64,000 nt of DNA, taken from sequence record PZ171035.1. One strand, written 5' to 3'. Positions 5,930 through 59,621 of this stretch are shown here, one piece after another. Numbering within the stretch: position 1 is the stretch's first letter; every line of letters begins with the position of its first letter. The position numbers and the translations under genes are program-made. The DNA is from a phage. Below the pieces are notes generated by a model. It was given only the letters and a program-made list of their open reading frames with translations. It had not been told where the DNA came from and did no database searches.

Positions 5930-5930
5930 T

Positions 5931-6512: not shown

Positions 6513-6513
6513 G

Positions 6514-31514: not shown

Positions 31515-32318
31515 ATGTCATTGTTCAGTAATCTGAAAGAAAAAACCAAAAACGTTGAAGCTGTTAAAGACTCCCTTGGTGGCGGTGGCTTCGGTGCAAA
31601 AGAGTCCGATATCTACACTGGTACTGTAAAAGTAGCCTATGTAGGTAAAGCTGACTCTGGTGCAGACTGGATGCAGTTAATCATTGAAGACCTGAAGAAT
31701 TCTGATGGAGTACCTGCTGGTGAGTTCCGTGCTCAGGTGTACTTCACTTCTGGTAATGCTAAAGGCAATAAGCCGACTTACGAGAAGAACGGTAAAGAAT
31801 ACTTCCTGCCTGGCTACACTGTCATTAATGACATGATGCTGATGGCTACCGGTACGGAACTGCCTGAAGCTGACTTCGAAGAGAAGATCGTTAAAGTCTA
31901 TGACTTCGATACTAAAGCAGAAGTTAATAAATCTGTCATGGTTCCAGTTGACCTGGTAGGCCAGACTGTTACCTTCGCTCTGGAAAAAGTTCTGGAAAAC
32001 AAGCAGGTTAAAGGTGACAACGGTTACGTTGACTCCGGCGAAACTCGTGAAGTAAACGAGATTCAGAAAGTGTTTCATCCGGAACTGCTGGTCACAGTTG
32101 TCGAGGCTCAGGAAGCAGAGAAGGCTGAGAAAGAACTGACTCCGGAACTAGCTGTATTCTATGCAGCATGGTTGGAAAAGAACAAAGGTAAAACCCGTGA
32201 TAAGACCAAGGGTTCTGCTGGTGGTAATGGTAAAGGTGGCTTGCCTCCTAAACCAGGTGCAGGTGCTGGCACAGGTACTACTCCAGCCGGTGGTAAATCT
32301 CTGTTCGGTAAACGTTAA
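31515..32318 (+). CDS. single-stranded DNA-binding protein (N4 gp45-like; positional/size call)
   Basis: 267 aa (N4 SSB is about 265 aa), glycine-rich flexible acidic/basic C-terminal tail, position after the replication ATPase. Confidence 0.45.
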   Translation: MSLFSNLKEKTKNVEAVKDSLGGGGFGAKESDIYTGTVKVAYVGKADSGADWMQLIIEDLKNSDGVPAGEFRAQVYFTSGNAKGNKPTYEKNGKEYFLPGYTVINDMMLMATGTELPEADFEEKIVKVYDFDTKAEVNKSVMVPVDLVGQTVTFALEKVLENKQVKGDNGYVDSGETREVNEIQKVFHPELLVTVVEAQEAEKAEKELTPELAVFYAAWLEKNKGKTRDKTKGSAGGNGKGGLPPKPGAGAGTGTTPAGGKSLFGKR

Positions 32319-37344: not shown

Positions 37345-37350
37345 AATAGA

Positions 37351-37376
37351 AGCCCCTCATTAGAGGGGCTTTTTCA
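37351..37376. terminator. bidirectional terminator between convergent plus-strand module and vRNAP gene
   Basis: AGCCCCTC-ATTA-GAGGGGCT hairpin with T-runs on both sides (TTTTTCATTT on plus, TTCTATTTTATTT on minus). Confidence 0.65.
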
Positions 37377-37377
37377 T

Positions 37378-40300
37378 TTAGTTAGTAAGATTGAGCCACG
37401 GGTTCAGGGTATGAGCACGTAAGCCTTGACCGAAACCGAAGGAGTAACCAAGATTGCCCTGTGCAGCAATACTAAAGATGTTGTCCTGAATAGGCAGGCC
37501 AACGTTACCAAACATGGTAGGGGTTGGGGCCAACATAGCCATAGCAGCATGAACTGGGTTATTACGAATCATGGACACTGCAACTTTTGCAGAACGAATC
37601 TTAAAGTTGTAGAACCACATCAGACCAACGCTTTCCATATACCCACGGAAACGACCAGGCAGACGGTCATAGTTAATGAACTCTTCCGTTACACGTCCCA
37701 GTGCTTCTTCGCGAGTCTTACCTTTACGCTGAGTTAGTTCATCATAGATGATTGCTTTAGCAATAAAGTCAGAGTACTCAACCGTCTTCTGGATACTCTG
37801 GAACAAAGCAGTATCCTTAGTGATAAGTGCATAACGACCTGCGTTACGTACAGACTTAGGCAGCTTATCGGCTAGCTTATCCATATATTCGTGAAGTTTA
37901 CCTTCAGTAATCAGAATGTCATCACGCCCAATACCAGCATCTGCAATTGAAGAGAACTCACCAGCTTCCAATAGAGGCCAGATACTCAAACGCTTATGGC
38001 TATCCGTAATGGACTGAATCTCAGCCTTAAGTTTACGAATCTGGTTCGGGTTAGTAGCTGCACGTAATTCTGCTTCTGCATCTACCTGACGCAGGCGAGA
38101 TTTCAGGTACTGGTTAATCTCAGCAGTCTTCTGTGGAATGCTCTTAGCAATGTTCTTAACCGGTACACCACGAGCAACCATCTGGTAAAGGTTAGCCAGG
38201 AAGTTAACAGCAGGTACAACTACTGACTTAACCACAATCAGAGTCTTAGCTTCTTTAACTAAGTTTTGAACCAGGTTCTCTCCACCCATTACATATTTAT
38301 AAGCACGGTTACCGAAGACACCCAACATAGCTTTCTTGAAGGTATCCAGTGTTTCTGGGGACCAACGAGAATTACCAGACCAGGCATCACCAACGGAAGC
38401 TGCACGATAACCTAAGGCATCATTAAGCATGTCACGACGTACCCACAACTCACCTGGACCAAACAGACTTTCTGCTTTCTGACGAGTTTCACTATTCATC
38501 AGCTTAAGTGCATCGGCAGTTACTGGGTCCAGTTTAGAACCAAGAAGGTTAACGTACTGGGACTTATTAGAAGCAGACATCTTAATGTCGTTCTCATACA
38601 TGCTATGCAGGTTCTCAATTAGCATATCGTTGAAACGCTGAGCCTTAGCCTCTTCTACCTGACGACCACGCCATACACCGATTGCACGAGCAAGATGGTT
38701 CTCACCTTCAATGTGCTTCAGCATGTTAGGGTCAATAGATTGCTCGTAAGCAACTACATTACCATTAGCATCATATACAGGCAGCAGAGGTTCATTACCA
38801 CGTTCACCACGAGCAAGTGCTTTAGTGATACGGTCTACAGAAGGCTTGTCAGTGATACGACCCGCTACCATGGTTCCCATCGTAAAGCCTGTACCAAGGT
38901 CTACACCACCAGCAGTATTTCGAACGTTCTGTAAGATACCCTGTGAGAATGGGGCCTGTGCCTGTACTGGTGCGAAGTAGTAGCTACGTGCTGGACCACG
39001 GTTAGCAGAGCTACCTTGATAAGTACCCAGACGTACATAGGACTTCTCAATCAAATCACCAAACTGGCTATCTTCAGCAACAATCAGATTAACACCCTGT
39101 TTAGTCTCACTAGGGATATGCCCTTTGTACTGGTTCAGGGTTGCACGCATATCAGATTTGGCTTTAGCCATTTCATCTTTACGCTGACCAACCAGGTAAG
39201 AGGTGGCAAAGTCCATCCCATCAACTTCTGTCTGAGCCAGTGAAGATAACATCTCACGGTCGGACTTGTTCATTGCTTCCAGTGCATACAGGGTAATCAG
39301 TTTATCCAGTTGAGCTACATCTACAGTAGAGCGTGCAGCCTGACGTTCACCCAGCATACGGGAGATTGCAGTAGCATTACGCAGCAGGTTTTTACCGACA
39401 GTACCATTAATCATGTACTGAGCCAGTTGCTTAGATTTACGGTTAATCAGAGGCCAGTTACGACCAGCTTGTTTCTGCAAATCTGCTTCCAGCTTATTCA
39501 CTTCACGGTCAACAATCTTCTGGTCAGTCAGTAAGTCACGGATTTCAGCCAGTGACATAGTGTCACGCAGGACAGCTAAATCTGTTTTACCCATACCAGT
39601 ATGCATTACTTTCCACTCATCATTAGTCAGCTTACGGCTGAACTTAGATGCGATAGTAGTAGGCAGATGTTCACGGAACTGCTGACGGTCTGCCTGCACC
39701 TGTGCACGTACTGCTTTAATCAAATCGTATACAGAAGCATTGCTCTTAGTACGACCGGTTAAGTCATTAACCAGGTCATGGAAAGGTTGCCATACCTTAC
39801 CCTGGTTCATTGCAGCCATAACACCTTCAGCTACGATTGCACCATTCTTCTCTGTAGCAATAGCAGCTACCAGTTGTGCAGCATGAGCAGCACCTTTAAC
39901 CAATGGATTATTGGTATTGGCTGCAACTTCACGAGCACCTTCCAAAGCACGGGTAGATAGTACATCAATAGAATCCACCAGATACTGGTTAGCACGGTCA
40001 ATAGCATTACCAGTAGGAGTAGCAACGGAATCATAGAAGGATTCTGCATTAAGACTGGTCTGCATAATCGTCTGAGCCAGTGCATCCATACCTTCCTGTA
40101 CGTTAGTAGCTTTAGTATCACCTGCTACACGAGCATTCAGACTAGCCATTGCAGCAGTACCAATGTTAGTCAGCATTGCATCAACGGTATTACCTGATTT
40201 CTTATCTGCTTTCATGACAGGAATGTCAGCCAGTACTTTACGTACTTCTTCACTTACCATTGCCAGACCAACAAAGGTAGGCAGTAAAGAAGATCGACCT

Positions 40301-43300
40301 TGTGCATCAAACTCAATGTTGTTAGCACCCATGATGGTATCGAACTTCTGCTGTGCATAATAACGATCAGCAGGGTTAGTACTATCTGGGTCAGCCATAA
40401 ATGCTTCGACGGTCAGATTCTTAGTAACATGCGTGTAGTATTCCTGTGCACGAGCCATAGCAGCAGGGTTAACAGCAGCCTCGGTAGCCAGTGCAGCAAC
40501 AATATTGGTAAAGAGACGCTGTTCCTGCATATTCATGGTGAAGCCATGAGCCTGAACATCACGAGTTACTTTAGTTGCATTTACTACTGCATCAGAGAAC
40601 TTACCTTTGCGAATTACTTGCTGTACTGGTTCTGAACCAATGTAGTTAGTAATTAGCTTATCAAAGGTTTTCCCTAGCTCTTCCAGACGAGTATTTTCAC
40701 CATACGCTTTGTTATGGAACAGAGTAGTATCTTTGGCTACAGCAGCAGTAGGAGCTTGCCCACGCATTACTACAGCAGAGTTAAACAGTAAGCCAGAGAA
40801 CATATCTTCTGCATTAGCAGGAGCTTTCTTACGTCCAAATACCAGACGTTTGATTGCTTCATATACAGCCTGAACCATAGTTTTAAGTGCAGTGGTTTTC
40901 TTCTGCTTACTAATCAGTTCTCGGTTGGTTAAACCCCAAGCCATGTACTCGTTCAGTGCAGCAGCTTTAGCCATTGCTGGTTCAATAAAGCCATTGGATA
41001 GGTGACCATTAATGGTATTCAGTGCATCAGCATATGCTTCTCGTACTGCCGGAGATTCATCCCTAACATCCAGAGCACGGAACTGATTCATCAGGTCTTC
41101 GATGTTCTGGACTGCTTCATTAGGAGTGCCTTCATAGTGAGCCAGTACAGATTCAAAAGTAGAAGCATGTACCAATTCATGAACCAGAGTCTCTAAGGAA
41201 GGGGTAACTAAGTAGATGGTTTTATCTTCAAAGTTAGTCCAGCCGTATGCATTACCAGCTTCAGCAGCTTCAATATCTTCCGGTGCTGGGCGAGTAATGT
41301 TCTTCTCAATAGCATAGGCATCCAATTGAGCAGGTGTACCGTAAACAACTTTATAGTCTTTAGCAGCAAGGGATTTCTGTATTTCTTTCAATACTTCTTG
41401 CTGTTCAGGAGACATCTCTTTAGCCAGTTTAGTAATGGCAGTGTTAGACAGCAGACGTACACCAGACTTCAGTACACGACCAACCTGTTCCATCGCCGGT
41501 ACTTCTTCCACTGGTTCTGCTTTAGTAGCACGTACTGCTTCACGACGCTTATTTAATTCAGCATCAAACAGTTCGTTCAGCTTAGCTACTTGCTGGTCTA
41601 CAGTAAGACCTTCCAGAGAGATTTTACCGTTGTTCACATAAGGAGCACCTACGGCAGCCATCTGGTCAACAGTGACTTGTACCTGGTCCATTACCTTGTG
41701 ACGAATATCTACACCCAGAGCAATGTTACGCAGGTTACGTTCAATCTGCTCAGCACCGACACGTAACAGGTCATCAGTAGCACCCTCACGTTGGTCATAC
41801 TCCAGAGCAGACTTAGCGATAGCCTGTTTGGTTTCATCAGACAGTTTACTGAAGTCTACGTTCTTCATGAACTTAGCGTAGGAGTCATAAACATTCTTGA
41901 TAGGGTTACCCTGCCAGGAAGTATATACAGCCTCATTAGCTTTGCGACTTGCATCAGTGATGTCATTGATACCAATGTTCATACCATCAAAGATTTTCAG
42001 GGTATTCTTCGGAGCACCTTTCATAGTAGAAAGTGTCTGCATCATCATGCCATCACCAGTACCGATGGTCATAAATGGAATACCTGCAACACCTGCCTGT
42101 GAAGGAGCATAAATGCTCATTGGCACACGCATACGGTCATCTAAGTTAGTAGCCAGTACTTGGTTAGCAACATCAGTATTCTCACTACCAGCAATGTAGA
42201 AAGTCTGTGAACCAGTCTCAATCATTGGAGCCAGTGAAGATAATGATTCCTGGATTTCATTCAGTTCTTTCTGCGTTAAGAAATCACCTTTCTTCCAGGT
42301 TGGGTCTTTTTCTTTTTCTGCCAGCTTAGCCTGTACTGCTTGCTGGAACATATCCTGCAATACCAGAGATTGAATCTGGGTAGCCTTCTGCAAGTTCTCG
42401 GTAGAGTGCATCAGACCTTCACCAACAGTATTACGGATACCAGTACGCATTGGTTCAACGAACAGGTGGAGCATGTTCTCTTGTAAGTTCTTCAGGGCAT
42501 TACCGGATACGGTAAATTTCTGGGGGTCTAACTTACCAGTCAGAGCACCATCTACTTGCTGAATAGACAACTCACCTTTACGCATAACTGGAACATTACC
42601 AGTCAGTGCTTCCATAGAAGTAAGGAAAGTATCCAACATAGCCTGAGCATCAGCTTCAGACGCAGCCTCCTTACCAAACATTGCCATAGCTGGGGAAATG
42701 CTAGGGTCAGCAGCTCGTGCTTGCAGAACGTCACTGAAGCGTTCGTAGATGGTATCAGTAATTGCACTGACCATCTTGCCAGCAATACCACGAGCACCAG
42801 AACCATAGATGGTAATGGTCAGTGGGTTTTTAGCAATACCACGTTTCAGGTCCAGAGTACCGTCTTCATTCAGGTTAAAGTCTTTAATGAACAAGTCCAT
42901 TAACTTCTGGAGATGATTCATCTGGCTCATAACTGGAACGTTGTTACGGTAAGTAGTACGTAACTCATTCAGTGCTTGTTGAAGACCATTGGTAGATGCT
43001 TCATACAAGTCAACATTATCGTCGATAGAACAATGTTCGTTCATCGTTTTACCAGCACGACCAAAGAACAAACCACCTTTGGCAGTGTTCTTAATCCAGT
43101 CTGGAGTGAACTTACCACCAGTCATTAATACCATTGCGTTGATTGGGCCGTTGGTTACACCATCAGCTTCAACGTACAGTGGAGTAGTAAAATTAGCACG
43201 GTCATCACTGTTCAGGTAACGGGCATATTCCATCAGAGCCATGAGAGCTACGAAGGATTTATCACTACCCAGAGAGGTCTTCAGGATGTCTACTGCATCT

Positions 43301-46300
43301 GTCGGTAAGTGACCAGACTTATCAAACTCAACCATCATATCAACAGCAGGTTTCAGTTTACCTTCCAGAGCTTTAGTTAACTCTTCAGACATAACTTCAC
43401 GGGACATTTTATGTACCTTGATGCCTAATGCCTGAGCCAGACCTAACTGGAAGTCAGAGAACGCTTGGCTGTTTTCATTACTCAAGTCGATAGTAGAGAA
43501 GGTTGGTAGGATTGCTTCACGAACCAGCTTACTGGATTGTGGGTTGTTCTTACCAAGCATCTGCATACGACCTACACGGGTCATGTTATAACCGTAGTGG
43601 ATAGGTGTATCCAGACCATTCTCTTGTTCTCGTATCTGATTAATTACACCGAACAGAGAATCATATGCCATAGACACGGACAGGTTTTTACCTTCCAAAG
43701 ATTTAGCAGTGTTCGCGTTCAGTAATTCTGGATTAAGAGTACCAGCACCCATCAGTTCCAGAATGTTGTCACGCCCCAATGCTTCATAGAAGTTAACCAT
43801 TGGCATATGTACACGGAACTCGGTAGCCTGTTCAGCTTTCAGTGCAGCTTTCTGTTCAGGGGTATTCTTAACAGCAGGGTTACGCAACTGAGTCTGAGCC
43901 ACAGAAGGAATGTCATCACCAAAGTACATTTTCTCTTCTGGTTCTAAGAGGACAGCTTCCTCAATAGCAGTAGGGAATTTATTAATGGCATCATTGTCAT
44001 CCAACTTCTCAATGGTATACAGACCAACAGTCTTATTGGAGTCTGGGTCAATCTCAGACACATCCAACATAGACTCTTTAACTTCACCCATCTCAATGAG
44101 AGAAGACAGAATCTCTGTAGCCATTGCCATTGGGATACCTTTGGTATAACCCAGCGGTGCATTAGGATTACGATTCAAACCCCAGTAGGATTCAATCTTC
44201 TGAGCCAGTGAGTTAGTAGCTTCAACCAGGGTCTGGGCATTCTCGAACTCAGCCAGAATACCTTCTGGTAACAGAGATGCTTCTACGCCTGTAATAGCAG
44301 CTACGTCTTTCATATCTTTAATGGCAGCATTCTGTGTAGTAGTCAGTCGCCATTGCAAACCAGCAAGCACAGCAGTCTCTAACAACTGGTCGTTGAACTT
44401 AAAGGTATCCCCATCTTGTTCAACTATATTCAGCAGTTTGCCACCTACCCAACGGTTAGCTTCAGTACCTTCTGCAAAACGTTTACCAACGTTCTTATTA
44501 GCAAGGAACTTAGCCAGACGTTCAGACAAAGTAGTCTTCAGAGTTTCACCAAAGTCCATTAAGTCCTGATAACGCTTAATCACATCACTAGTGAGAGCGT
44601 TATTTTCTTTTTGAGTGAATGCCTCAAAGCGAGCAGCAGAAGACAGTGCTTGCTTAATATCAGTCAAAGGAGATTCTGAACCAATGGTACGGGACTTAGG
44701 TTCTTCCGGTAAGGTAAATGCTTTCAGGAACTGGTTCGGTGTCTTTTCATTGTTATAGACAGGGAACACTGTTTCCATTTCTGTTTTGGTTTCAGCTACT
44801 TCCTGGATGGTATCCTCATTCTTGAGAATAGCATCTACTGTTTCAGGCTTAGTAGTAGAGACTTCTTCTGTTTTTGGACTAGTCTCCTTAGTAGGAGCAG
44901 TCTTATTTTCTACCACAGGTTTAGCTTTAGGCTGTACAGTAGTAGTGTCCTCTTGCACTGGTGCAGGAGATTCATCAACCTGATTCACTGGTTCATTAGT
45001 CTGTTGAGACTGAGTGGCATCAAGACCACCTTGACGGAACTCTTTAACTACCTGGGCAGCAGGCTTGTTCAGACGTGAATCCAACGAGGTAACTTTCACA
45101 TGAGAAACATTAAGCTCCGGGTAAGCCGTAGCAAGTGCATTAGCAATATCAGCTACGGTTTTGGCTTCCAGTCCTACTTGCTGGGCAAACTTAACAGACT
45201 TGGTATCGTAAGGATTGACACCGAGGCCAGTACGACTACGTACCCATTCACGGGAAGGCGAGAGAGCCTGATAATGAACAGACTTATTCTTATCCGCATT
45301 CCCCGAAATCAGATGCTCATTCAACGCTCCGACCTTATTCTGCATGTGCTGGGCGAACTTCATAAAGTCGCTCAGATAAGCGGAGGCCAAATCGAAGTTA
45401 CCAGAGTTATACGCAGAACGAATGCGTTTCGCATGTTGCAACGCAGAGTACTGTCCTTCATTAGAACGAGACTCGTCGGTTTTAATCTGTTTACTAACAA
45501 TGTCTTGAGGACGTAAGCCTAGTTCTTCTGCTTTAGCGTCGAACTCACGTGCACCCTGTAACAAGGCAGCAGCAGATTGCAGGGCAGCACGTTGACGATT
45601 ACCCAATGTAATCTTACCTTCACTTGCATGTTTCAGAACCATGTTCACTGAATCCGCATCCAGTACTTCTGGAGATACATCAGCAGCCATAGCAATATTG
45701 TTTGCTTGGGCTTGGTTAGCTTCTTCAGTAGCTTTCAGCTTACCTGCTTCAGCCTGTTCCTGAATCATGGAATGGATAGCACGGAATGCACGAAGTACTT
45801 TCGGGGTATTCTGTACGTTAGCCATCAGGCCGGAGAATTGGTCTACGATTGCAGCAGCAGGAGAACCCTGTTCAAGATTAGCCAGAGCACCTGGGTCACG
45901 GTTAATGAAGCTATCCATAGACATGATGTTGTCATACATCTGGATTGCAGCTTCCATTTGAACGTTAGGGTCTTCGGCAGTATTAACCAGGTCAGCCATC
46001 TTCTGAATAGCTTCAACACGGTTAGTGGAACCAGAAACAGCTTCACGGATTGCCGGGTTAGCTTGTTCCAATTCTACCGGGTCAAACTTCATTGCCTGAG
46101 TTAAGTCAGCAGCATACTGGGTAGCAGCAGCTTTCTCTTCTGGAGTGATGTCCATTGCATCCACTGCTTCTTGTACAGTTGCCTGTGCTTGTTCTGCCTG
46201 AGCAGCAGCTTCCTGTGCAGCAGCATTAACCGTAGCATCAGCTACAGGGGATGCTTGTTCATTACGCTTAGCAACTTCTTCACCACGTTGAATCAGGATG

Positions 46301-47730
46301 TTAGTAAGAGGGGATGCAGCTTTTGCTAATGTTTTGCCAACCAGAGAAGCACCAGCCATGGTAGTACGAAGAGCAGGGCCAGCAGAAGCACCAACTGCTT
46401 TAACAGTTGTACCAGGAGCTTGAGCAACCCCAGCACTACCGAATCCATAAAGTGCACCCAGACCTGCTTGCTCACCAACCCCTTTGAGGGTGTCACGGGA
46501 TGCATCAACGTTTTCTTTGATTGCAGTATTCTGTGCGAACTGACCAAAGCCGGATTGAATACCTTCTTCGACTGTTTCACGTAGCATATTAGAACCAGCA
46601 CCTGCCAGTGAACCTACCTTAAGTGGGTTAAGTTCAAAGCGAGATACCAGTGGACCGGTAGCAGCAGCAACTGGAGCAGTTAAGCCAGCAGCAATGATAC
46701 CTGTTTCAGATGCAGTCTGACGACGTGCTTCATCAGGAGATAAACCATCAGCAATATGTTGTTGGTAAACAGGAGACTTACTTGCCAATTCTTGATGGGA
46801 CATCTTCATGATTTCAGAAGCAGTCTGTTGGTATGCACCACCAGCTTCCATACCACCGATTGCAATAGCAGGTGCAGCAACACGACCGGCAGACAATGCA
46901 ACCTGTGCAGGACGTGAACCTAACCCAGCAGCTAAGGTAATACCCTTAACAGCTTTATCACCACCTACCATTACTTTACCAAGTGCAGATACACCACGAA
47001 TAAGAGGACCACCAGTAAAGAGAGAACCAACACCTTCACTCAGTCCGTCAGAGGCAGCCATACCATTATCAAGTGTGTTAGCAACAGAATCGAAAGCGTC
47101 ACGACCAATACGAGACAGGGAGGCAACCAAATCGCTGTCCCCATTTTTGATATCTTGTTCATAAAGTTTCTGGTTCTTTTGAGCAGAAATCTGGTTCTGA
47201 TTCTGAACAACTTTACGGGTAGCATTCAGTGCATCAGACTGTAGATTGTGTACACCTTCATTCAACCAATCCATCCCGGAAGCAATGGATGCCCCGGCAT
47301 TATCATTGACCAGACCTGTGCCAAGAGCAGCAATGCCCCCAAGGGTATTAGCAACACCAAGACCAACACCAGAAAGAGTATCGCCAAATGCTTCTGCGTT
47401 AGTACGCTGTTTAGATAAGTCCTGACGTACAACATCAGCAGCATTAGCTCGGCTATTAATAATCTGTAGACCTTGTTCATTACCGTACTTATTAATGATT
47501 TCTAAAGGGGAGGCTTGAGTGAAATCTGCCTGAAGTGAACCTGGTTCGAATGCACCGATTCCAAGATTACCTACTCGTCCGGTCTGGAGATTGTAAGCAT
47601 TCTCTGGGGTTAATTGGAAAGGGCTTTGCCCTTGTGCAGCTTGCTTCTGAGAGGTTGCAGTAGAGACATCGACTTGCTTAGCATTAGTGATGCTGTCTGC
47701 GAAACCTGCCAGACGGTCAAATGTTGACAT
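37378..47730 (-). CDS. virion-encapsidated giant RNA polymerase (vRNAP, N4 gp50-like)
   Basis: Single uninterrupted 3450-aa ORF; only N4-like phages are known to encode a virion RNAP of this size; ORF track start at 47748 is TTG, first ATG at 47730 has AGGAAA RBS. Confidence 0.85.
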   Translation of the reverse strand: MSTFDRLAGFADSITNAKQVDVSTATSQKQAAQGQSPFQLTPENAYNLQTGRVGNLGIGAFEPGSLQADFTQASPLEIINKYGNEQGLQIINSRANAADVVRQDLSKQRTNAEAFGDTLSGVGLGVANTLGGIAALGTGLVNDNAGASIASGMDWLNEGVHNLQSDALNATRKVVQNQNQISAQKNQKLYEQDIKNGDSDLVASLSRIGRDAFDSVANTLDNGMAASDGLSEGVGSLFTGGPLIRGVSALGKVMVGGDKAVKGITLAAGLGSRPAQVALSAGRVAAPAIAIGGMEAGGAYQQTASEIMKMSHQELASKSPVYQQHIADGLSPDEARRQTASETGIIAAGLTAPVAAATGPLVSRFELNPLKVGSLAGAGSNMLRETVEEGIQSGFGQFAQNTAIKENVDASRDTLKGVGEQAGLGALYGFGSAGVAQAPGTTVKAVGASAGPALRTTMAGASLVGKTLAKAASPLTNILIQRGEEVAKRNEQASPVADATVNAAAQEAAAQAEQAQATVQEAVDAMDITPEEKAAATQYAADLTQAMKFDPVELEQANPAIREAVSGSTNRVEAIQKMADLVNTAEDPNVQMEAAIQMYDNIMSMDSFINRDPGALANLEQGSPAAAIVDQFSGLMANVQNTPKVLRAFRAIHSMIQEQAEAGKLKATEEANQAQANNIAMAADVSPEVLDADSVNMVLKHASEGKITLGNRQRAALQSAAALLQGAREFDAKAEELGLRPQDIVSKQIKTDESRSNEGQYSALQHAKRIRSAYNSGNFDLASAYLSDFMKFAQHMQNKVGALNEHLISGNADKNKSVHYQALSPSREWVRSRTGLGVNPYDTKSVKFAQQVGLEAKTVADIANALATAYPELNVSHVKVTSLDSRLNKPAAQVVKEFRQGGLDATQSQQTNEPVNQVDESPAPVQEDTTTVQPKAKPVVENKTAPTKETSPKTEEVSTTKPETVDAILKNEDTIQEVAETKTEMETVFPVYNNEKTPNQFLKAFTLPEEPKSRTIGSESPLTDIKQALSSAARFEAFTQKENNALTSDVIKRYQDLMDFGETLKTTLSERLAKFLANKNVGKRFAEGTEANRWVGGKLLNIVEQDGDTFKFNDQLLETAVLAGLQWRLTTTQNAAIKDMKDVAAITGVEASLLPEGILAEFENAQTLVEATNSLAQKIESYWGLNRNPNAPLGYTKGIPMAMATEILSSLIEMGEVKESMLDVSEIDPDSNKTVGLYTIEKLDDNDAINKFPTAIEEAVLLEPEEKMYFGDDIPSVAQTQLRNPAVKNTPEQKAALKAEQATEFRVHMPMVNFYEALGRDNILELMGAGTLNPELLNANTAKSLEGKNLSVSMAYDSLFGVINQIREQENGLDTPIHYGYNMTRVGRMQMLGKNNPQSSKLVREAILPTFSTIDLSNENSQAFSDFQLGLAQALGIKVHKMSREVMSEELTKALEGKLKPAVDMMVEFDKSGHLPTDAVDILKTSLGSDKSFVALMALMEYARYLNSDDRANFTTPLYVEADGVTNGPINAMVLMTGGKFTPDWIKNTAKGGLFFGRAGKTMNEHCSIDDNVDLYEASTNGLQQALNELRTTYRNNVPVMSQMNHLQKLMDLFIKDFNLNEDGTLDLKRGIAKNPLTITIYGSGARGIAGKMVSAITDTIYERFSDVLQARAADPSISPAMAMFGKEAASEADAQAMLDTFLTSMEALTGNVPVMRKGELSIQQVDGALTGKLDPQKFTVSGNALKNLQENMLHLFVEPMRTGIRNTVGEGLMHSTENLQKATQIQSLVLQDMFQQAVQAKLAEKEKDPTWKKGDFLTQKELNEIQESLSSLAPMIETGSQTFYIAGSENTDVANQVLATNLDDRMRVPMSIYAPSQAGVAGIPFMTIGTGDGMMMQTLSTMKGAPKNTLKIFDGMNIGINDITDASRKANEAVYTSWQGNPIKNVYDSYAKFMKNVDFSKLSDETKQAIAKSALEYDQREGATDDLLRVGAEQIERNLRNIALGVDIRHKVMDQVQVTVDQMAAVGAPYVNNGKISLEGLTVDQQVAKLNELFDAELNKRREAVRATKAEPVEEVPAMEQVGRVLKSGVRLLSNTAITKLAKEMSPEQQEVLKEIQKSLAAKDYKVVYGTPAQLDAYAIEKNITRPAPEDIEAAEAGNAYGWTNFEDKTIYLVTPSLETLVHELVHASTFESVLAHYEGTPNEAVQNIEDLMNQFRALDVRDESPAVREAYADALNTINGHLSNGFIEPAMAKAAALNEYMAWGLTNRELISKQKKTTALKTMVQAVYEAIKRLVFGRKKAPANAEDMFSGLLFNSAVVMRGQAPTAAVAKDTTLFHNKAYGENTRLEELGKTFDKLITNYIGSEPVQQVIRKGKFSDAVVNATKVTRDVQAHGFTMNMQEQRLFTNIVAALATEAAVNPAAMARAQEYYTHVTKNLTVEAFMADPDSTNPADRYYAQQKFDTIMGANNIEFDAQGRSSLLPTFVGLAMVSEEVRKVLADIPVMKADKKSGNTVDAMLTNIGTAAMASLNARVAGDTKATNVQEGMDALAQTIMQTSLNAESFYDSVATPTGNAIDRANQYLVDSIDVLSTRALEGAREVAANTNNPLVKGAAHAAQLVAAIATEKNGAIVAEGVMAAMNQGKVWQPFHDLVNDLTGRTKSNASVYDLIKAVRAQVQADRQQFREHLPTTIASKFSRKLTNDEWKVMHTGMGKTDLAVLRDTMSLAEIRDLLTDQKIVDREVNKLEADLQKQAGRNWPLINRKSKQLAQYMINGTVGKNLLRNATAISRMLGERQAARSTVDVAQLDKLITLYALEAMNKSDREMLSSLAQTEVDGMDFATSYLVGQRKDEMAKAKSDMRATLNQYKGHIPSETKQGVNLIVAEDSQFGDLIEKSYVRLGTYQGSSANRGPARSYYFAPVQAQAPFSQGILQNVRNTAGGVDLGTGFTMGTMVAGRITDKPSVDRITKALARGERGNEPLLPVYDANGNVVAYEQSIDPNMLKHIEGENHLARAIGVWRGRQVEEAKAQRFNDMLIENLHSMYENDIKMSASNKSQYVNLLGSKLDPVTADALKLMNSETRQKAESLFGPGELWVRRDMLNDALGYRAASVGDAWSGNSRWSPETLDTFKKAMLGVFGNRAYKYVMGGENLVQNLVKEAKTLIVVKSVVVPAVNFLANLYQMVARGVPVKNIAKSIPQKTAEINQYLKSRLRQVDAEAELRAATNPNQIRKLKAEIQSITDSHKRLSIWPLLEAGEFSSIADAGIGRDDILITEGKLHEYMDKLADKLPKSVRNAGRYALITKDTALFQSIQKTVEYSDFIAKAIIYDELTQRKGKTREEALGRVTEEFINYDRLPGRFRGYMESVGLMWFYNFKIRSAKVAVSMIRNNPVHAAMAMLAPTPTMFGNVGLPIQDNIFSIAAQGNLGYSFGFGQGLRAHTLNPWLNLTN

Positions 47731-47795
47731 AGCATGTTTCCTGTTCAAACTTATATCGTATATAGGTAACTTACTCTACAGTAAGCCAGTTAAAG

Positions 47796-47820
47796 AAAAA
47801 AGCCCCGTAGGGCTTTTATT
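47796..47820 (-). terminator. terminator/attenuator hairpin between virion gene and vRNAP gene
   Basis: Minus-strand reading AAGCCC-TACG-GGGCTT followed by TTTTTCTTT. Confidence 0.5.
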
Positions 47821-47824: not shown

Positions 47825-49789
47825 TTACCGATTTTGTCTTGGTTGCATATACTCAGGCAGTCCTTGTGCCTGACGTAAGTACCGTGCAGCACGTTCTTCA
47901 TCTTCCTTGGCTCGTGCCCTGTCCACACTAGCCTGTGACTGAAAACCTCTTGGAGCCAGGTTAGCTGGGTCAGCTTGTACTTGTGCCTGTGCAGCTTGGA
48001 GCATTGCAGCAGCTTTAGTAACAGCCTCCTGTCGTGCAGGTAACAGTGCAGTAAGACCACTTTGTCCGGTGTTAATCTTATTCTGGGTATTTGCCAGTGC
48101 AGCTACAGCAGCATCATATGCAGTCTGTGCTGCCTGAATGTTCTGCATAGCCTGAGCACGACCTAGGTTACGAACACTACCTTCTAATGGTTCACCTCGT
48201 TTTACACCCTCAATTAACTGTTCTACCTGACGGTCATTAAGACGCATACCATTACCGGCTTCATTGGTAATGAATGGGTTAACTGCATCAATAGCACGAC
48301 TAATATAACCTTCCGGTACACCAGTCTGTGCACGTTGCATAACAGCAGCAGCCATAGCTGGTGACATATTCCCACGTTGGGAAATATCATTCAGTCGGTT
48401 CAGTACCCAGTTACGGTCAGCACCTTTAAAGTCACCCTCCAACAGACGGTTAGCAATCTCACCTACTGGGGTATTATCGGTGACAGTACCAAGGAAGTCA
48501 GTGTTAAGACTACCGGTGTTATCCTGCATAGAGCGAGTACCAATCATACCTTGAGCCAGAGTAGATACTGCCTGATTGCCCTGATTATTCTGAACCATAG
48601 CGAGAGGGTCAGCCCCCACTTCTGCTTGAGCAATAACAGGTTTAATCTGTTCCCAAGTCATATCCTTATAAGCACCTGGAGCAGAGTTAGGGAGTGCAGC
48701 CCAAGTATCTTTAAGGTTACCGTTCTTACGGGCCTCGAAGATAGCCTTACCAATCTTATCCTGGTTCTCAGGAGAAAGAGGCTGGCTTTGCCAATCTGAA
48801 CCAAGAACTTTAGGAGCGAAGTCTTTCAGAGTAGCTTGGTTAATCTGGAATGCACCAACAGGTGAAGCACCTTGGTTCTTCTTCATACCATCCTGGTGTT
48901 TAATTACATCACCAATACTCATTTGAGTAATAGGAGTAGATGTACTGGCAAACTGGTAAGTAACATCATAAGGAGAACCCTGACGAGTACCAGCAGTACC
49001 TGGAGCAGATGTAGCACCAACATTATTACCGTAAACACCCGGGTATGCTCGTGCAAGCATTTCCTGCAAACGTGCCTGTGCAACCGGGGACAGGTTCTTA
49101 CTATATGCTTCTGCCAACAGACGGGCATCATTAGGGTTCTCAGCACCACGAGTAATCTGTGACATTACACCCATAGCTGCCTGACTATCAGCATCATTAC
49201 GTTGGGCAACACCTAAATCAAAACGGTTCTGTGCCTGATTAATAGCCTGACCACCCTGACCTTGAAGACGACCCAACATGTCCAATTGTTGGTCAGCAGG
49301 GAGTGCAGACAGTGCATCACGGGTCTGACTTAATGCAGCATTAATACGGTTCTGGTCGCCGGACTGATAAGCCTCAGACAGCAAACGAATAGCTGGGGAA
49401 GCATTATCTAATGCAGTGTTAGTATCCTGTAAACGACCAAAGCGATATGCATTGTAGTCATTGGTTCCCTGCTGACCTTGTTGGGTCAGTAATGTACCTG
49501 CTCGCTCATCCAGATTCTGGAGAGTACGTTGGTTTACCAATGAGGGGTCAACCCCCTGAAACAGTGCACCGGATGCTAAAGCATTACGGTACTCATTCGG
49601 GTCTTGATACTGCATAGCATTCATCATGACGGCATTGCCAGCCTCCTGCTTGGCAGCGTTCTGGAAATTACCCAGTGCATCACTTAAGCCGGAGGTGGCG
49701 TTACCAATCATGCTGCCAAATGTGCGAATGCTGTCACCAACTCCAGAGAAGTTAGGTGCATCAACATTTCTCCACGTTATCTGAGCCAT
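47825..49789 (-). CDS. virion structural protein (N4 gp51/52-like), possible lysozyme-like segment
   Basis: 654-aa Gln/Ala-rich ORF immediately upstream of vRNAP in the late operon; segment GAFQINQATLKDF weakly reminiscent of lytic transglycosylase motifs. Confidence 0.45.
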   Translation of the reverse strand: MAQITWRNVDAPNFSGVGDSIRTFGSMIGNATSGLSDALGNFQNAAKQEAGNAVMMNAMQYQDPNEYRNALASGALFQGVDPSLVNQRTLQNLDERAGTLLTQQGQQGTNDYNAYRFGRLQDTNTALDNASPAIRLLSEAYQSGDQNRINAALSQTRDALSALPADQQLDMLGRLQGQGGQAINQAQNRFDLGVAQRNDADSQAAMGVMSQITRGAENPNDARLLAEAYSKNLSPVAQARLQEMLARAYPGVYGNNVGATSAPGTAGTRQGSPYDVTYQFASTSTPITQMSIGDVIKHQDGMKKNQGASPVGAFQINQATLKDFAPKVLGSDWQSQPLSPENQDKIGKAIFEARKNGNLKDTWAALPNSAPGAYKDMTWEQIKPVIAQAEVGADPLAMVQNNQGNQAVSTLAQGMIGTRSMQDNTGSLNTDFLGTVTDNTPVGEIANRLLEGDFKGADRNWVLNRLNDISQRGNMSPAMAAAVMQRAQTGVPEGYISRAIDAVNPFITNEAGNGMRLNDRQVEQLIEGVKRGEPLEGSVRNLGRAQAMQNIQAAQTAYDAAVAALANTQNKINTGQSGLTALLPARQEAVTKAAAMLQAAQAQVQADPANLAPRGFQSQASVDRARAKEDEERAARYLRQAQGLPEYMQPRQNR

Positions 49790-49801: not shown

Positions 49802-50266
49802 TTAACGAGTTAGTTTATTAGCAGCAATGTAAGCATCAGCCGAAGACTGGTCACGGTTCTCTGCTGTAGCACGGCTACGAGCACGGTCTTCCAGTGCAGT
49901 GTTATAAGACTTAATCTGGTTATTCAGGTTAGTGTTAGTAACACTCTTAGTAAAGTTCAACTGGTCTTTGGCTAACTTGTTAGCCTGGAAACCACTATAG
50001 ATACCAGCTAAGGAACCAAGTGCACCAAGTCCTAGTTGAAAGGTGGGTACGTTCATACCCAACTGATTAGCTGAACCAGATAAGAAGGAAGTTGGGGAAG
50101 CCACTCCTGTACCTGCATTCATACCAATAGCTGCACCAGGGGTATAGTTCATAGCTGGGGTATTAAAGTTCTGATTGTTATTAGACATCCAAGACATAGC
50201 AGCTGGCTGTGGGGTTTGGTTGCCTGTTAAGAATGACAAATCCATGAGGATTCTCCTGTTAAACAA
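49802..50266 (-). CDS. virion protein (hypothetical)
   Basis: 154-aa ORF in late operon, overlapping stop/start with upstream gene. Confidence 0.4.
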   Translation of the reverse strand: MFNRRILMDLSFLTGNQTPQPAAMSWMSNNNQNFNTPAMNYTPGAAIGMNAGTGVASPTSFLSGSANQLGMNVPTFQLGLGALGSLAGIYSGFQANKLAKDQLNFTKSVTNTNLNNQIKSYNTALEDRARSRATAENRDQSSADAYIAANKLTR

Positions 50267-54533: not shown

Positions 54534-55736
54534 TTACAGAGGAGCAACAGTCTTAATCAGAGCCAGACGTTCTGGGCGTTTAACCAGGATACCATAGTAC
54601 CACTTGATAGAACTGAATCCAGTTTCACCATACGGGTCATTACGGTCAGCAGTTTCTTTACCAGGCATCTTAGTCATGATGGTGAACTTAACAGACTTAC
54701 CATCAGTCTGGAAGCCAATGGTAGAGAAGGAATCATCACCAACTACCAGCATCGGGAATACGTCGTAGTGCTCCTGACCAGATACCATAGAGGTACGATA
54801 ACCTGGGTTAGTACCAACCTGAGCACCAGCACCTGCCCAATGCAGCATCTCAGGAACCTGGATAATACGGAACTTATCAATACAACCGATTTCACCATTC
54901 ATCAGTGTACCAGCATCAGCATAGTGCTGAACTTCGATGAATGCTTTGTTACCAAACAGGTCCTTCATCGCTTTCAGTTCTGGAACCAGTTCAGAACCAA
55001 CGTACATTACACGAGTACCACCGAGCACTTTGGTATCAGTAAGTTTAGAACCAGTGATGATAGTAGTCTGAGTCGGAGTACGGTTCTCAGTAAGAATCTG
55101 GTCAAGACGCATCAGGTTCTTATAAGAAACTACAGACGGGGTAGCACCTTCACCAGTGATGGTAGCATCGGAGGTAGCAGCACCTGCATACAGTACAGTA
55201 CCAGCAGCAGCCAACAGGTCTTTCTGGAGAACAGCTTCAGTCAACTGTACAGCACCGTTCATCAGTTCACGAGACAGGTGTTCTTTCAGTTGATCATCAG
55301 AATCAAAGTCCAGAGACTCTTGAGTAAATTCATAGAAGAAACCGAACTTATGGATGGAACCTTCACGAGACAGACGGGTAAAGCCTACACGGTTAACACG
55401 ACCACCGTTCTCTGTCAGCAGAGGCAGTTTAGAGGTGATATTACCAACGTCTCTGGAAGAACCATACAGGTTACCGTTAACGATGGTAGCACCATTAGCA
55501 TCAATACCCTGGTCGTTGATGTTCTTATAGTCAAGCAGCGGAACGTACTCATACACCTTAACAGTCTTACCGTAGTTCTTCGGCATGTTAATGGTGTTGG
55601 CCAGTGGCATGAAGTACTGGTCTTTACGGGACTGAATAATAGCTTTCTTCAGCCAGTAATAGGTATTCATCTGGTCGGAACCAGCACCATCAATGCTAGA
55701 TTTCTGGCCGTCAATTGGGGCGTTATAGTTTAACAT
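54534..55736 (-). CDS. major capsid protein (N4 gp56-like; size/position call)
   Basis: 400 aa (N4 MCP about 401 aa), HK97-fold-like composition, followed by strong hairpin, located between portal and vRNAP-proximal virion genes. Confidence 0.7.
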
Positions 55737-57350: not shown

Positions 57351-59621
57351 TTACAGGTTCATGCCAAGAGCCGATGCTGGGTCTTGGCTAGGGTCATAGT
57401 ATTGAGAACTGAGTGAATAAGCCGGGTCTTGCTGAGCAGCTAAATCACGTTCTGGTATAGAGTTCCCGTTAGTCAAAGTATTATATCCAACAGCTGCAGA
57501 TATGTTGGGGGTAGTTTCCCCTTCTTTAATAGGTGTTGTCAATGCCTTAGTTATCTGAAGGTTCTGGTTTCCTTGAGATTGTGCTTTTTGTTTTTCCATA
57601 TCACGAGCATGTTTAGTACCAGATTCCTGTTCCAGATAATCCAGGTCTTTAAGGTCACCAGCAGAAGCAGCCTCTTTAGCCTTAGCCATATTGAGTGTAA
57701 TCTTGCTTTGTAACTCTTCATTCTCAAGCTGTGCTTTCTGAATCGCCAATTGTTTAAGCTGTTCTTCCATAGGGTCCGGTTGTGGTTGCCAAGTACGTAA
57801 CTCATGAGCCAGGTCAGGCATACGTTTAAGTTCTGCAATTTTAGCTACGAGAGATAACGTAATAGTCTGGTCAACCGTATTACCAAGTGTTTGAACCATG
57901 AAGCTCAAGTCCTGAGACTTCTGGTTATCAATTTCAGCAGTGTTAATATCAACCTCAATATCGAAGTTACCTTTAAGGTCTTCTCGGTTAATTTCTACAT
58001 ACTGCTCGTTAGTAATACGTACTACTTCCTTCTCAGATAAGAACACAGCATTCATTGCACAAATCTTAGTACCAATGTCTGCCATGCCTTTAGCTAATCG
58101 ACGAAGGATTGCCATCTCACGTTTGGATGCTGCATCAAGTGCACCACGAATACCAGCAGCCACATCTCCATAAGCTGAACCAGTTACACCACCTGAGAAT
58201 GCTTTAACACCAGTTAGTGATTCTGCTTCCTGGTTTTGCATCTGGGTCATTACTATTGCCGACTGAGGTAATTCAGGGAACTTATGTTCCATAATGGCCT
58301 GACTAGGATTGCCCTGCATTGGGTTGTATTCATAGTCCTGCCCATCATCGTATCGACGACGGTTCAGTGTATCCAGCATTCCTTTAGGATAACCACGTTG
58401 ACCATTTGCACTTCGACCCAACAGGTCAATCATCCCACGCATAGTTGCACCAAGAATTGCTTGGTTATCCCCTAACAGTTCAGCATCAGCTTCACCAAAG
58501 AGTTCACGTTTACGTGGCATGTAAGGAACAACTACCAAAGGCAACTTACCATCCGGGAATGGGTTCTTCTCCATACGAATAAGGGTAGAACCAATCCAGG
58601 TAGCAACAATTGGTTCCAGAGAACCATCATCATTGATGTCGTAAAATCCCCAGTATTCATAGGCAACAACTTTCTTACGAAGTGCATCCTTAAACTGGAA
58701 GTCACTTGGAGTTTTACTTTCATGGTCTGGGTCAGTCATAGGACTGGAACTTTCCCAGTCAATCTTATCTAAATTGTGATAACGGTCCTTGTTCTTCATG
58801 AGGTCTGCTTTACATGTCTCAAAGGAGATAACTGCATACAGAGCCTTATCCAAATCACCATTACAACTTGGGTCAATGACTACGTTATTAGGGTTAAGCA
58901 TTTCAACAGTAGGTCTGTTAACCAGTGCTTTCTCTACTTCTACTTCTGTAACTCCAGTCTGGATTGCATAGGTAGCTTCTCCAGTTTCATTGAAGTAGTT
59001 AACAGCTTCCTTAATATCTTCCGGCATTGTTTCATCGTACTCACGAGGATTCTCTGCCTGAAGCTGTAAAGCTTGTTGGAGAACATCTGCCTGTTCCTGG
59101 TTCTCAATTGGATACAACTGGAAGACTGGTGTTTCTGTTTTAATCTTAACAGTCTTACGTTCCCAACCAATACGAGCGATACCAGTACCGTCATCTACGA
59201 CACTGTGTACGTAATCATCTATCAGTTTCACTTTATTAAGCTGGGTACGGAATTGGTAGTTAAGAACTAATTCATTCTGACGTGCAGCTAACTCATCTTC
59301 ATAAGTAACAGGAGTTACTTTAAAGAGCTTATTAGACGATAGGAATGGTTCAGACAATGGAGCATATCGCCACTCTGCCTGACGGCGAACCAGTCTGGGT
59401 TGGACTTGTGAACGTCCCTTAACCTTTGGGGGTTTAGCCTTACCTTTGACTTCCATCAGGTCATTCCACTCACGAATCTGAGCCATGATTGCATCATGAG
59501 CAGGTTTAGCTGATTCCAAATCACCTTTCAGTAATTGGATACTTGGTTCCTTCTTCCAGTCCGTTAATTTCTCTGATTGAGCCGGGTCTGGTAAAGGCTT
59601 AAAAGTGTCTTGGTGTTCCAT
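57351..59621 (-). CDS. portal protein (N4 gp59-like; size/position call)
   Basis: 756 aa (N4 portal about 760 aa), upstream of scaffold-like and capsid genes. Confidence 0.6.

Follow-up and report, generated by a model that had tools for sequence, protein, structure and literature searches.

An intact N4-type virion RNA polymerase gene in a phage of the genus Gamaleyavirus

The phage DNA described here (record PZ171035.1; the whole 64 kb stretch is referred to as the window) carries on its minus strand a giant open reading frame, which raises the question of whether it encodes the virion RNA polymerase (vRNAP) of N4-like phages, whether this enzyme is intact, and how its gene is placed and expressed within the genome. 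In agreement with the original prediction, a single 10.3 kb ORF extends without interruption over 37378..47748 (minus strand), counting 3456 aa from a TTG, while an in-frame ATG at 47730 gives a product of 3450 aa. The gene and its upstream signals are as follows:

37378..47730, minus strand: vRNAP coding sequence, N4 gp50 orthologue, 3450 aa plus stop
47737..47742, minus strand: Shine-Dalgarno AGGAAA, read from the sequence, 6 nt 5' of ATG 47730
47746..47757, minus strand: GATATAAGTTTG box of 12 nt, identical from N4 to Gamaleyavirus, abutting the Shine-Dalgarno

Identity of the protein and its start codon

The protein was found to align end to end with N4 gp50, the full-length PDB chains scoring 5040 bits (query 1-3449 versus gp50 1-3499) with 66% aa identity over the full length, and PHROG 2206, 'virion RNA polymerase', matched residues 25-3449 at 4136 bits. 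All four N4 vRNAP domains of Pfam (PF21867, PF21624 (plug), PF21894 and PF21769) were recovered at 90-337 bits against cut-offs of 27. A comparison of the central region with the N4 mini-vRNAP, proposed earlier as a check, was positive, with the PDB entries 2PO4, 3C2P and 3Q0A matching query 995-2067 at 1708-1709 bits (E = 0). Size by itself cannot separate an N4-type vRNAP from other classes of large protein, such as crAss-like or phiKZ-type virion RNAPs, tape-measure proteins or injection proteins, and on size the phage might have been something other than N4-like. However, the sequence, family and genome matches all point to an N4-type vRNAP and to Schitoviridae, the outcome named beforehand as contradicting the prediction (dissimilarity to N4 vRNAP and another family-level match) did not occur, and the reading as a phage that is not N4-like, already refuted, is left with a vanishingly small probability.

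The identity of the protein can be considered settled because the structure of a protein 66% identical to it has been solved and dozens of already annotated orthologues are nearly identical to it, among them the PhAPEC7 vRNAP (YP_009056186.1) with 96.9% protein identity. The ORF almost certainly encodes the full-length, intact vRNAP of a G7C-like phage of the genus Gamaleyavirus, within the N4-like family Schitoviridae. The gene is an ordinary copy with nothing novel, at about 97% protein identity to annotated Gamaleyavirus genes. Several public records misname it, some calling it a 'hypothetical protein', others 'DNA polymerase' or 'translation initiation factor 2'.

Regarding the start codon, the ORF-track start at TTG 47748 is in frame, and the TTG itself is kept in N4 and in Gamaleyaviruses, as would suit a 3456 aa product. 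Nevertheless, this TTG falls within the conserved GATATAAGTTTG box, nothing similar to a Shine-Dalgarno is found 5' of it, and the sole such site, AGGAAA, lies 3' of it, between the TTG and the ATG; AGGAAAC is kept in N4 and three Gamaleyaviruses. The annotated starts of the PhAPEC7, PhAPEC5 and KKP 3715 orthologues match ATG 47730, the N terminus read from this ATG is MSTFDRLAGFADS here and MSVFDRLAGFADS in N4 gp50, and the N4 gp50 PDB chains, together with all annotated orthologues, open with MS(T/V)FDRLAGF. Initiation at the TTG is thus very unlikely, and the best start of the gene is ATG 47730, with a product of 3450 aa, as had been suggested from the AGGAAA site.

Domain architecture and catalytic residues

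By using the domain limits of N4 gp50 (PMC13492108), three domains and a linker were mapped onto the protein:

44989..47730, minus strand: N-terminal domain (NTD), aa 1 to ~914, corresponding to N4 NTD 1-919 by alignment to N4 gp50
44785..45027, minus strand: linker 1, aa 902-982, low-complexity and T/E/V/P/K-rich, from composition and N4 alignment
41518..44781, minus strand: polymerase (Pol) domain, aa 984-2071, corresponding to N4 mini-vRNAP / Pol 1008-2104, from Pfam and PDB matches
37381..41487, minus strand: C-terminal domain (CTD), aa 2082-3450, corresponding to N4 CTD 2123-3500

Conservation is highest in the Pol domain, where dN/dS is 0.05 and identity to N4 reaches 95% around motif C. 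R1388 (TRVGR), D1523, K1634, Y1642 and D1915 each lie in an 11-residue context identical to N4. Kazmierczak and others, in 2002, reportedly assigned mini-vRNAP R424, D559, K670, Y678 and D951 as the T/DxxGR Arg, the motif A Asp, the motif B Lys and Tyr, and the motif C Asp, respectively; these residue numbers were checked on the N4 sequence. R1084 and W1094 are also conserved with N4, in whose Pol domain R119 and W129 read the -11G of the promoter hairpin (PMC13492108).

The flanking domains are likewise constrained. The NTD shows a dN/dS of 0.055 versus PhAPEC7 and 42-88% identity to N4, and the CTD, which in N4 packs on the Pol domain, autoinhibits the polymerase and is needed for encapsidation (PMC13434306, PMC13492108), is 61-80% identical to N4 throughout, with a dN/dS of about 0.06. 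Linker 1, corresponding to the flexible linker at N4 residues 907-1006 (PMC13434306), is diverged and about 25 residues shorter here than in N4; it holds most of the indels, its identity to N4 falls to 43-45%, and its dN/dS versus PhAPEC7 is 0.36-0.56. A Kyte-Doolittle scan of the NTD for membrane-spanning segments returned one weak Gly/Ala-rich hydrophobic stretch at aa 344-362, in a different place from the N4 stretch at aa 118-140, and a conserved transmembrane helix in this domain is therefore without clear support.

Since the NTD and CTD make up two thirds of the protein, have no catalytic role and in N4 serve injection and packaging (PMC4496689), it could be argued that the gene has decayed or been repurposed, and now encodes a giant ejection or structural protein with a dead polymerase domain. 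Such a proposal is extremely unlikely: the catalytic residues are all intact, the Pol domain is the part with the strongest conservation, the cognate promoters are still in place (see below), and there are zero internal stops across 10.3 kb. As judged from the substitution ratios, the intact vRNAP is under strong purifying selection, and the catalytic and hairpin-reading residues checked are all retained.

The late block and the transcription cascade

The late genes surrounding vRNAP were compared with those of N4, and the following homologues are of interest:

47825..49789, minus strand: gp51 homologue, 654 aa, PHROG 6126, 50% identity to N4 gp51
49802..50245, minus strand: gp52 homologue, 147 aa from ATG, 56% identity to N4 gp52
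54534..55736, minus strand: major head protein, 400 aa, N4 gp56 homologue, strong PHROG match
57351..59621, minus strand: portal, 756 aa, N4 gp59 homologue, strong PHROG match
60111..60731, minus strand: endolysin, 206 aa, N4 gp61 homologue, strong PHROG match

The head, portal and endolysin proteins show 69-89% identity to N4 gp56, gp59 and gp61, and these values, together with the PHROG matches, confirm the N4 layout that had been proposed from gene order and sizes. In N4, gp51 and gp52 are ejection proteins that form an outer-membrane complex and a periplasmic tunnel, respectively (PMC13434306); the gp52 homologue is annotated at 444 nt in PhAPEC7. The homologues of gp49 and gp50-gp63 are found in the same order and orientation as in N4 and G7C-like phages, and those of gp1, gp2, gp15, gp16 and gp45 are also present, collinear with N4.

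The vRNAP gene had been described as heading the late operon, and this did not hold. All late genes lie on the minus strand, with transcription running towards lower coordinates, so the vRNAP gene is the last and most downstream of the leftward block; the N4 late order is likewise gp69 ... gp51, gp50. Two terminator-like hairpins flank it:

47798..47817, minus strand: intrinsic-terminator-like hairpin in the spacer that separates the vRNAP gene from the gp51 homologue
37348..37373, both strands: bidirectional terminator-like hairpin where the vRNAP gene and the gp49 homologue converge

The first hairpin carries a terminator annotation in both PhAPEC7 and PhAPEC5, and its conservation extends to N4; the second is found on both strands here and annotated on both in PhAPEC7. 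Within the gp51-gp50 spacer, apart from the terminator and the ribosome-binding site, N4 and the window share just one long identical block, GATATAAGTTTG, the remainder having diverged. As a general late-promoter motif it was rejected, with one exact occurrence in the window and with matches at up to 2 mismatches at chance level, none of them in the late intergenic spacers; it is kept only as a gene-specific candidate. A scan for the sigma-70 consensus returned 6 sites around the gene versus 17 in shuffled sequence, and 14 versus 31 across the late block; with fewer sites than in shuffled sequence, the scan is uninformative on the vRNAP promoter.

For the vRNAP gene, the GATATAAGTTTG box could serve as a dedicated weak promoter (with a -10-like TATAAG) or as an operator. 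N4 carries about 4 copies of vRNAP per virion, and the box, if it has this role, would hold the protein at such a very low copy number. Expression of the vRNAP gene, which lies behind a conserved intrinsic terminator, as its own late transcription unit, rather than by operon read-through, and, as a separate matter, the standing of the phage as an unnamed Gamaleyavirus species, are put forward together as a tentative and somewhat doubtful proposal.

At the left end of the genome, the cognate promoters were sought as template-strand hairpins with a 5-7 bp stem and a 3 nt purine-rich loop, and the genes of the remaining cascade were located by homology:

30..44, minus strand: P1-like hairpin ACATGC-GGA-GCATGT of the template strand, ahead of the gp1 homologue (87..410)
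719..731, minus strand: P2-like hairpin GACGC-GGA-GCGTC, ahead of the gp2 homologue (747..1220)
5063..5077, minus strand: P3-like hairpin AGCTGC-GGA-GCAGCT, ahead of the gp15 homologue of RNAPII (5111..5929)
5111..7731, plus strand: RNAPII subunit genes, gp15 homologue 5111..5929 (65% to N4) and gp16 homologue 6514..7731 (68%)
31515..32318, plus strand: N4SSB (gp45) homologue, 58% identity to N4 gp45

The P1-like hairpin, syntenic with N4 P1, has a 6 bp stem and a 3 nt loop, and its flanks match those of N4 P1 (catgtccataa...; PMC13434306). The P2-like hairpin is syntenic with the N4 hairpin 562-568, before gp2, and the P3-like hairpin with the N4 hairpin 4551-4557, before gp15, with which it shares the flank accaaaagct. 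Three further GCGRAGC matches in the window have stems of just 2-3 bp. A NUMOD1 ORF (5931..6512; Pfam) is inserted between the gp15 and gp16 homologues, and the latter matches Pfam RNA_pol. N4 gp45 activates host RNA polymerase at late promoters (PMC4496689). On homology, the genome carries the rest of the N4 cascade, in which RNAPII is the next step after vRNAP.

From N4, 66% identical in its polymerase, we infer packaging, ejection, promoter use and timing (PMC13434306, PMC13492108, PMC4496689). Host RNA polymerase, together with the phage SSB, would express the gene late from the leftward strand, and few vRNAP copies would be packed into the capsid via the CTD, which would also hold the polymerase autoinhibited. 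At infection, vRNAP would be ejected through a channel of the gp51 and gp52 homologues, with the NTD presumably engaging the membrane; the Pol domain would then bind the P1-P3 hairpins, extruded from the template strand of supercoiled DNA, and transcribe the early genes without host RNA polymerase, and this early transcription may also help to draw the genome into the cell. The gp1, gp2 and RNAPII homologues would be among the early products. Virion packaging, ejection and rifampicin-resistant early transcription have been shown for N4 and a few relatives only (PMC13434306, PMC4496689).

Relation to known polymerases and placement of the phage

The vRNAP genes of the Gamaleyaviruses PhAPEC7 (Escherichia phage vB_EcoP_PhAPEC7) and KKP 3715, also an Escherichia phage, encode proteins of the same 3450 aa length, with zero indels relative to the one described here and DNA identities of 93.9% and 94.2-94.3%, respectively; the flanking terminators, the ribosome-binding site and the neighbouring genes are also the same. 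The protein differs from that of PhAPEC7 at about 106 aa, proportionally most often in linker 1. The PhAPEC5 vRNAP is the same protein outside linker 1 (93-94% DNA identity for the PhAPEC5/Uz-1 type) but reaches 3571 aa through a 121 aa in-frame insertion in this linker, lacking in the window, PhAPEC7, KKP 3715 and N4, in which a Pfam scan found no match. A similar extra DNA length is seen in Uz-1, and Bp4 presumably belongs with this type.

N4 gp50 (PDB 2PO4, 3C2P, 9PNQ, 9PNR and 11GP) has the same three-domain architecture and identical catalytic and promoter-recognition residues, and the genome position, hairpin promoters and gp51/gp52 partners are shared as well; the vRNAP described here is 50 residues shorter, mostly in two linkers. 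N4 differs in genus, and its gp64 and gp65 (tail sheath and receptor-binding protein) are without homologue in the window, where a tailspike gene occupies their place. More distantly, N4 vRNAP has the right-hand fold of single-subunit RNAPs as well as their T/DxxGR, A, B and C motifs (PMC13492108), and these catalytic motifs of T7 RNA polymerase and mitochondrial RNAPs are also present here. Compared with the latter enzymes, the protein is about four times larger and would be carried in the virion; unlike the T7-type use of duplex DNA, it would, by homology with N4, need a single-stranded hairpin promoter.

For the taxonomic placement, the comparison with N4-like genomes that had been proposed as a second check was also positive: four pieces of the window were compared with the best Gamaleyavirus records, giving 92-94% DNA identity at 85-100% coverage per piece, with three of the four covered at just 85-94%. 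The product of identity and coverage, approximate and computed over the 64 kb window, is about 80-83%, above the minimum of 70% genome-wide nucleotide identity set for a genus (PMC7650795). With the late gene order collinear, these nucleotide values place the phage in Schitoviridae, Enquatrovirinae, genus Gamaleyavirus, and the earlier assignment as N4-like is thereby narrowed to a genus. Membership of a species calls for 95% or more nucleotide identity to its exemplar across the genome (PMC7650795), and the identity to existing species (e.g., Gamaleyavirus APEC7) falls below this line. No record exceeded about 94% identity over any large piece in a phage collection of 50,697 records, dated August 2025, such that a newer record could still match. 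An exact-sequence look-up among 15 billion collected sequences did not return the 3450 aa protein and, with no record at 95% DNA identity, the phage is regarded as a new strain; possibly it represents a new Gamaleyavirus species.

The tRNA island adjoining the vRNAP gene also contains an unannotated tmRNA-like RNA (34139-34524) with the tag ANDDVVLMAA; many phages carry this RNA too, as do about 10% of complete E. coli genomes. ARAGORN, with relaxed thresholds, proposed a permuted tmRNA whose tRNA-like halves are unconvincing, Rfam tmRNA_permuted gave 31 bits versus a cut-off of 47, and a canonical alanine-type tRNA-like domain was sought in the element and not found. This RNA is a more interesting lead than the vRNAP gene.

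For the vRNAP gene itself, a textbook hallmark has been confirmed, which is otherwise of little consequence. The placement in Gamaleyavirus, on the other hand, helps in the annotation of the window, including the early promoters, RNAPII, the SSB, the gp51 and gp52 ejection proteins and the tailspike.

The vRNAP gene and its product

The gene for the virion RNA polymerase (vRNAP, the orthologue of N4 gp50) occupies 37378..47748 on the minus strand as a single ORF with no interruption, of 3456 aa when counted from the TTG used in the ORF list. Its 5' end reads TTG (47748-47746), AGGAAA (47742-47737), a spacer of 6 nt and an in-frame ATG at 47730, from which the protein is 3450 aa long. The equivalent ATG is the annotated start in all three orthologues compared (PhAPEC7, PhAPEC5 and KKP 3715), and the N terminus reads MSVFDRLAGFADS in the N4 gp50 PDB chains versus MSTFDRLAGFADS in the window vRNAP. 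Therefore, by RBS spacing, orthologue starts and the N4 N terminus, the original prediction, which had preferred this ATG to the TTG, is confirmed in its coordinates, start codon and RBS. In GenBank, orthologues of this gene are mislabelled 'DNA polymerase' (ST4, PBM-2, PBM-3, UE-M6) or 'translation initiation factor 2' (phi G17), and those of KKP 3715 and IME11 JX880034 are labelled 'hypothetical protein'.

The TTG at 47748 is also conserved, but only within a conserved non-coding box, GATATAAGTTTG (47757-47746, minus strand), located directly upstream of the RBS. This box is the only long block shared identically by N4 and the Gamaleyaviruses between the terminator at 47817-47798 and the RBS, being identical in N4 and four Gamaleyaviruses within a diverged spacer. 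Since it occurs once in the window, where no second copy was found, and a generic promoter scan was uninformative, a promoter or operator role is something we infer, and the box may be a candidate gene-specific -10-like element or operator.

At the protein level, PHROG 2206 'virion RNA polymerase' matched vRNAP residues 25-3449 with 4136 bits, and four Pfam families built on N4 vRNAP (PF21867, PF21624, the plug insertion, PF21894, a helical domain, and PF21769) matched with 90-337 bits against cut-offs of 27. Full-length N4 gp50 (PDB 11GP, 9PNQ, 9PNR) aligned with residues 1-3449 at 5040 bits, and the central region, proposed as the counterpart of N4 mini-vRNAP, matched the crystallised mini-vRNAP (2PO4, 3C2P, 3Q0A) over residues 995-2067 with 1708-1709 bits. 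In global alignments the window protein was 66% identical to N4 gp50, whereas its identity to the PhAPEC7 vRNAP was 96.9% with no indel. The catalytic residues of mini-vRNAP, which we take to be R424 (T/DxxGR), D559 (motif A), K670 and Y678 (motif B) and D951 (motif C), correspond to R1388, D1523, K1634, Y1642 and D1915 in the window vRNAP, each with the surrounding 11 residues identical to N4. The residue numbering is reportedly that of Kazmierczak et al. 2002, and the numbers were checked against the N4 sequence before mapping. R119 and W129 of the N4 Pol domain, the readers of the promoter-hairpin -11G (PMC13492108), have R1084 and W1094 as their conserved counterparts. Transferring the published N4 domain limits (PMC13492108, PMC13434306) gave the following organization:

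aa 1 to about 914, N-terminal domain (NTD), by N4 mapping
aa 902-982, linker 1, low complexity and T/E/V/P/K-rich, overlapping the published NTD end
aa 984-2071, polymerase (Pol) domain, by N4 mapping
aa 2072-2081, linker 2, by N4 mapping
aa 2082-3450, C-terminal domain (CTD), by N4 mapping

Identity to N4 falls to a minimum of 42-47% in both linkers and parts of the NTD and rises to a maximum of 95% around motif C. In comparison with PhAPEC7 and KKP 3715, dN/dS was 0.05-0.06 in NTD, Pol domain and CTD alike, versus 0.36-0.56 in linker 1, and the low values point to strong purifying selection on all three folded parts. That the gene might be a decaying copy was rejected on the same values. Linker 1 of the PhAPEC5 vRNAP carries a 121 aa in-frame insertion, between the equivalents of window aa 967 and 982, which the window phage, PhAPEC7, KKP 3715 and N4 lack. 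The inserted sequence does not look low-complexity (YVKENTLNKYGDRRESPWLFADGT...) and gave no match in a Pfam scan, and in Uz-1 additional DNA of similar length was seen; the flexible linker appears tolerant of domain insertion. The exact window protein was absent from a collection of 15 billion proteins, and the gene represents a new allele, its protein being thoroughly known.

Genome context, taxonomy and tailspike

In tblastn with N4 proteins, gp49 and the series from gp50 to gp63 had homologues whose order and orientation match those in N4, the gene order being compared with both the N4 and PhAPEC7 maps. The neighbour sizes and N4 layout expected from the DNA were also borne out by tblastn and PHROG, and the vRNAP gene has a terminator-like hairpin on either side:

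400 aa, major head protein, 89% identity to gp56, PHROG match
756 aa, portal, 71% identity to gp59, PHROG match
206 aa, endolysin, 69% identity to gp61, PHROG match
37348-37373, bidirectional terminator-like hairpin between the vRNAP gene and the gp49 homologue
47817-47798, terminator-like hairpin between the stop of the gp51 homologue (47825) and the vRNAP start

PhAPEC7 and PhAPEC5 both have the hairpin at 47817-47798 annotated as a terminator, and its conservation extends to N4. The late genes are transcribed leftward (PMC4496689) and run in the window from 64000 down to 37378; therefore, the vRNAP gene, convergent with the rightward gp49 homologue, is the last of the block, as in N4, and does not head the late operon as had been claimed.

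Four megablast searches, jointly spanning the whole window, returned best matches that all belong to Gamaleyavirus (PhAPEC7, KKP 3715, PE007, St11Ph5, IME11, Bp4 and PD38), with 92-94% identity over 85-100% of each window piece, in agreement with the proposed N4-like affiliation. Set against the criteria of 70% for genus and 95% for species (PMC7650795), these values place the phage, by an approximate, BLAST-based and window-only estimate, in Gamaleyavirus and outside every species in the searched collection.

No homologues of N4 gp64 and gp65 were found in the window with the N4 proteins in tblastn, and their place is taken by a tailspike gene (61537-63447, minus strand, 636 aa). This tailspike is a mosaic: residues 1 to about 160-220 form the conserved Gamaleyavirus anchor module, 87-92% identical to PE007 and PW8, and residues 150-632 share only 49.5% identity with the tailspikes found in unrelated coliphages of 33-38 kb (EC.P3, E212). 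The protein was not covered to 80% by any record, and its receptor specificity is probably new for Gamaleyavirus.

A tmRNA-like RNA and a tRNA island

An ORF-poor region (33.3-36.1 kb), which lies immediately upstream of the homologues of gp48 and gp49, matches about 280 records of unrelated phage groups and contains the following features:

34139-34524, plus strand, tmRNA-like RNA, unannotated
34206-34241, tag frame of this RNA
34253-34274, post-tag hairpin, its loop pairing with 34283-34286 as a pseudoknot, a further covarying hairpin being next
34318-34336 with 34384-34402, lambda-late-leader-type stem
34397-34404 with 34517-34524, pairing of the 3' domain
34592-34657, 34660-34783, 35367-35439 and 35448-35532, plus strand, tRNA island

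The tag frame, GCA AAC GAT GAT GTT GTT CTG ATG GCG GCG TAA TAG, encodes ANDDVVLMAA followed by two stops and is preceded by ATAAAT, the resume context of genuine permuted tmRNAs in other viral contigs. Homologous elements occur in Bas78, UPM 2146 (Ackermannviridae), HK633 (lambdoid), PhAPEC7 (tag ANEEAYLMVA) and, among the matches listed, about 25 of 120 IMG/VR contigs; they carry other 10-residue tags in the same style, including ANEEMYLAVA, ANDEQFLAVA, ANDNTFLAVA and ANDDLMLMAA. Compensatory changes were observed in the post-tag hairpin, the loop-downstream pseudoknot and the further hairpin, with 96% of cells paired (versus 39-54% in slid controls) and double changes in 9 of 14 pairs, a level reached by 0 of 500 shuffles.

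The element was called neither by ARAGORN (default) nor by Rfam (gathering score) or PGAP, and six tag strings queried were absent from the searched literature. Of 5426 complete E. coli genomes, 559 contain it, with no RefSeq annotation beneath it, and in the single genome that was inspected it sits in a lambdoid prophage, with the Q antiterminator on one side and the holin on the other. Phage lambda itself has a single copy of the flanking stem (44788-44863) without the tag. As a canonical alanine-type tRNA-like domain was looked for in the RNA and not found, three readings stand side by side: it may work as a tmRNA, be a processed mimic or act as a decoy.

In the island, Rfam recognised two tRNAs, the second of 85 nt with an insertion, and ARAGORN only the first, with the anticodon undetermined. 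Two more tRNA-like sequences, missed by default tools and read from the sequence and relaxed ARAGORN, combine an acceptor stem, a T-arm reading GGTTCGA(G/A)TCC and an encoded CCA with a shortened or interrupted body.

Early promoters and the N4 transcription and ejection system

The template hairpin of the N4 early promoter P1 is GTTGC-GAA-GCAAC (printed in PMC13434306). A GCGRAGC search of the window gave six matches, which is chance level; three of these had stems of 2-3 bp, and the other three, with 5-6 bp stems and a GGA loop, lie on the minus (template) strand of the first 5.1 kb:

30-44, minus strand, hairpin before the gp1 homologue
719-731, minus strand, hairpin before the gp2 homologue
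5063-5077, minus strand, hairpin before the gp15 homologue

They stand 19-47 nt ahead of these genes; the N4 hairpins 93-99, 562-568 and 4551-4557 likewise precede gp1, gp2 and gp15, and flanking sequence is common to the window hairpins and the three of N4. Homologues were likewise found for the two RNAPII subunits (65% and 68% identical to those of N4, the larger one matching Pfam RNA_pol), for the cofactors gp1 and gp2 (66% and 68%), for N4SSB (58%) and for the ejection proteins gp51 and gp52 (50% and 56%). Together with the hairpins, these homologues show that the complete N4 transcription and ejection system is present in the window. The two RNAPII subunit genes, adjacent in N4, are split here by a 193 aa ORF (5931-6512, plus strand) that carries a NUMOD1 domain, which is a DNA-binding module of homing endonucleases.

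Because vRNAP identity is 66% and every checkable residue and partner is conserved, the mechanism described for N4 (PMC13434306, PMC13492108, PMC4496689) may be applied by analogy to this phage. Late genes would be expressed by host sigma-70 RNA polymerase after activation by the phage SSB, and the capsid would pack about four vRNAP copies, the CTD being required for packaging. In the apo state, the CTD would lie against the polymerase palm and fingers, with the active site occluded by the plug together with the loop of motif B. During infection, the vRNAP domains would traverse the 30-35 Å tail channel as beads on a string, with gp51 and gp52 as conduits, and the NTD would associate with the membrane. 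Promoter hairpins, extruded by host gyrase and SSB, would then be bound by the Pol domain, which would transcribe the early genes without needing the host's RNA polymerase and, in doing so, also pull the genome's first part into the cell.
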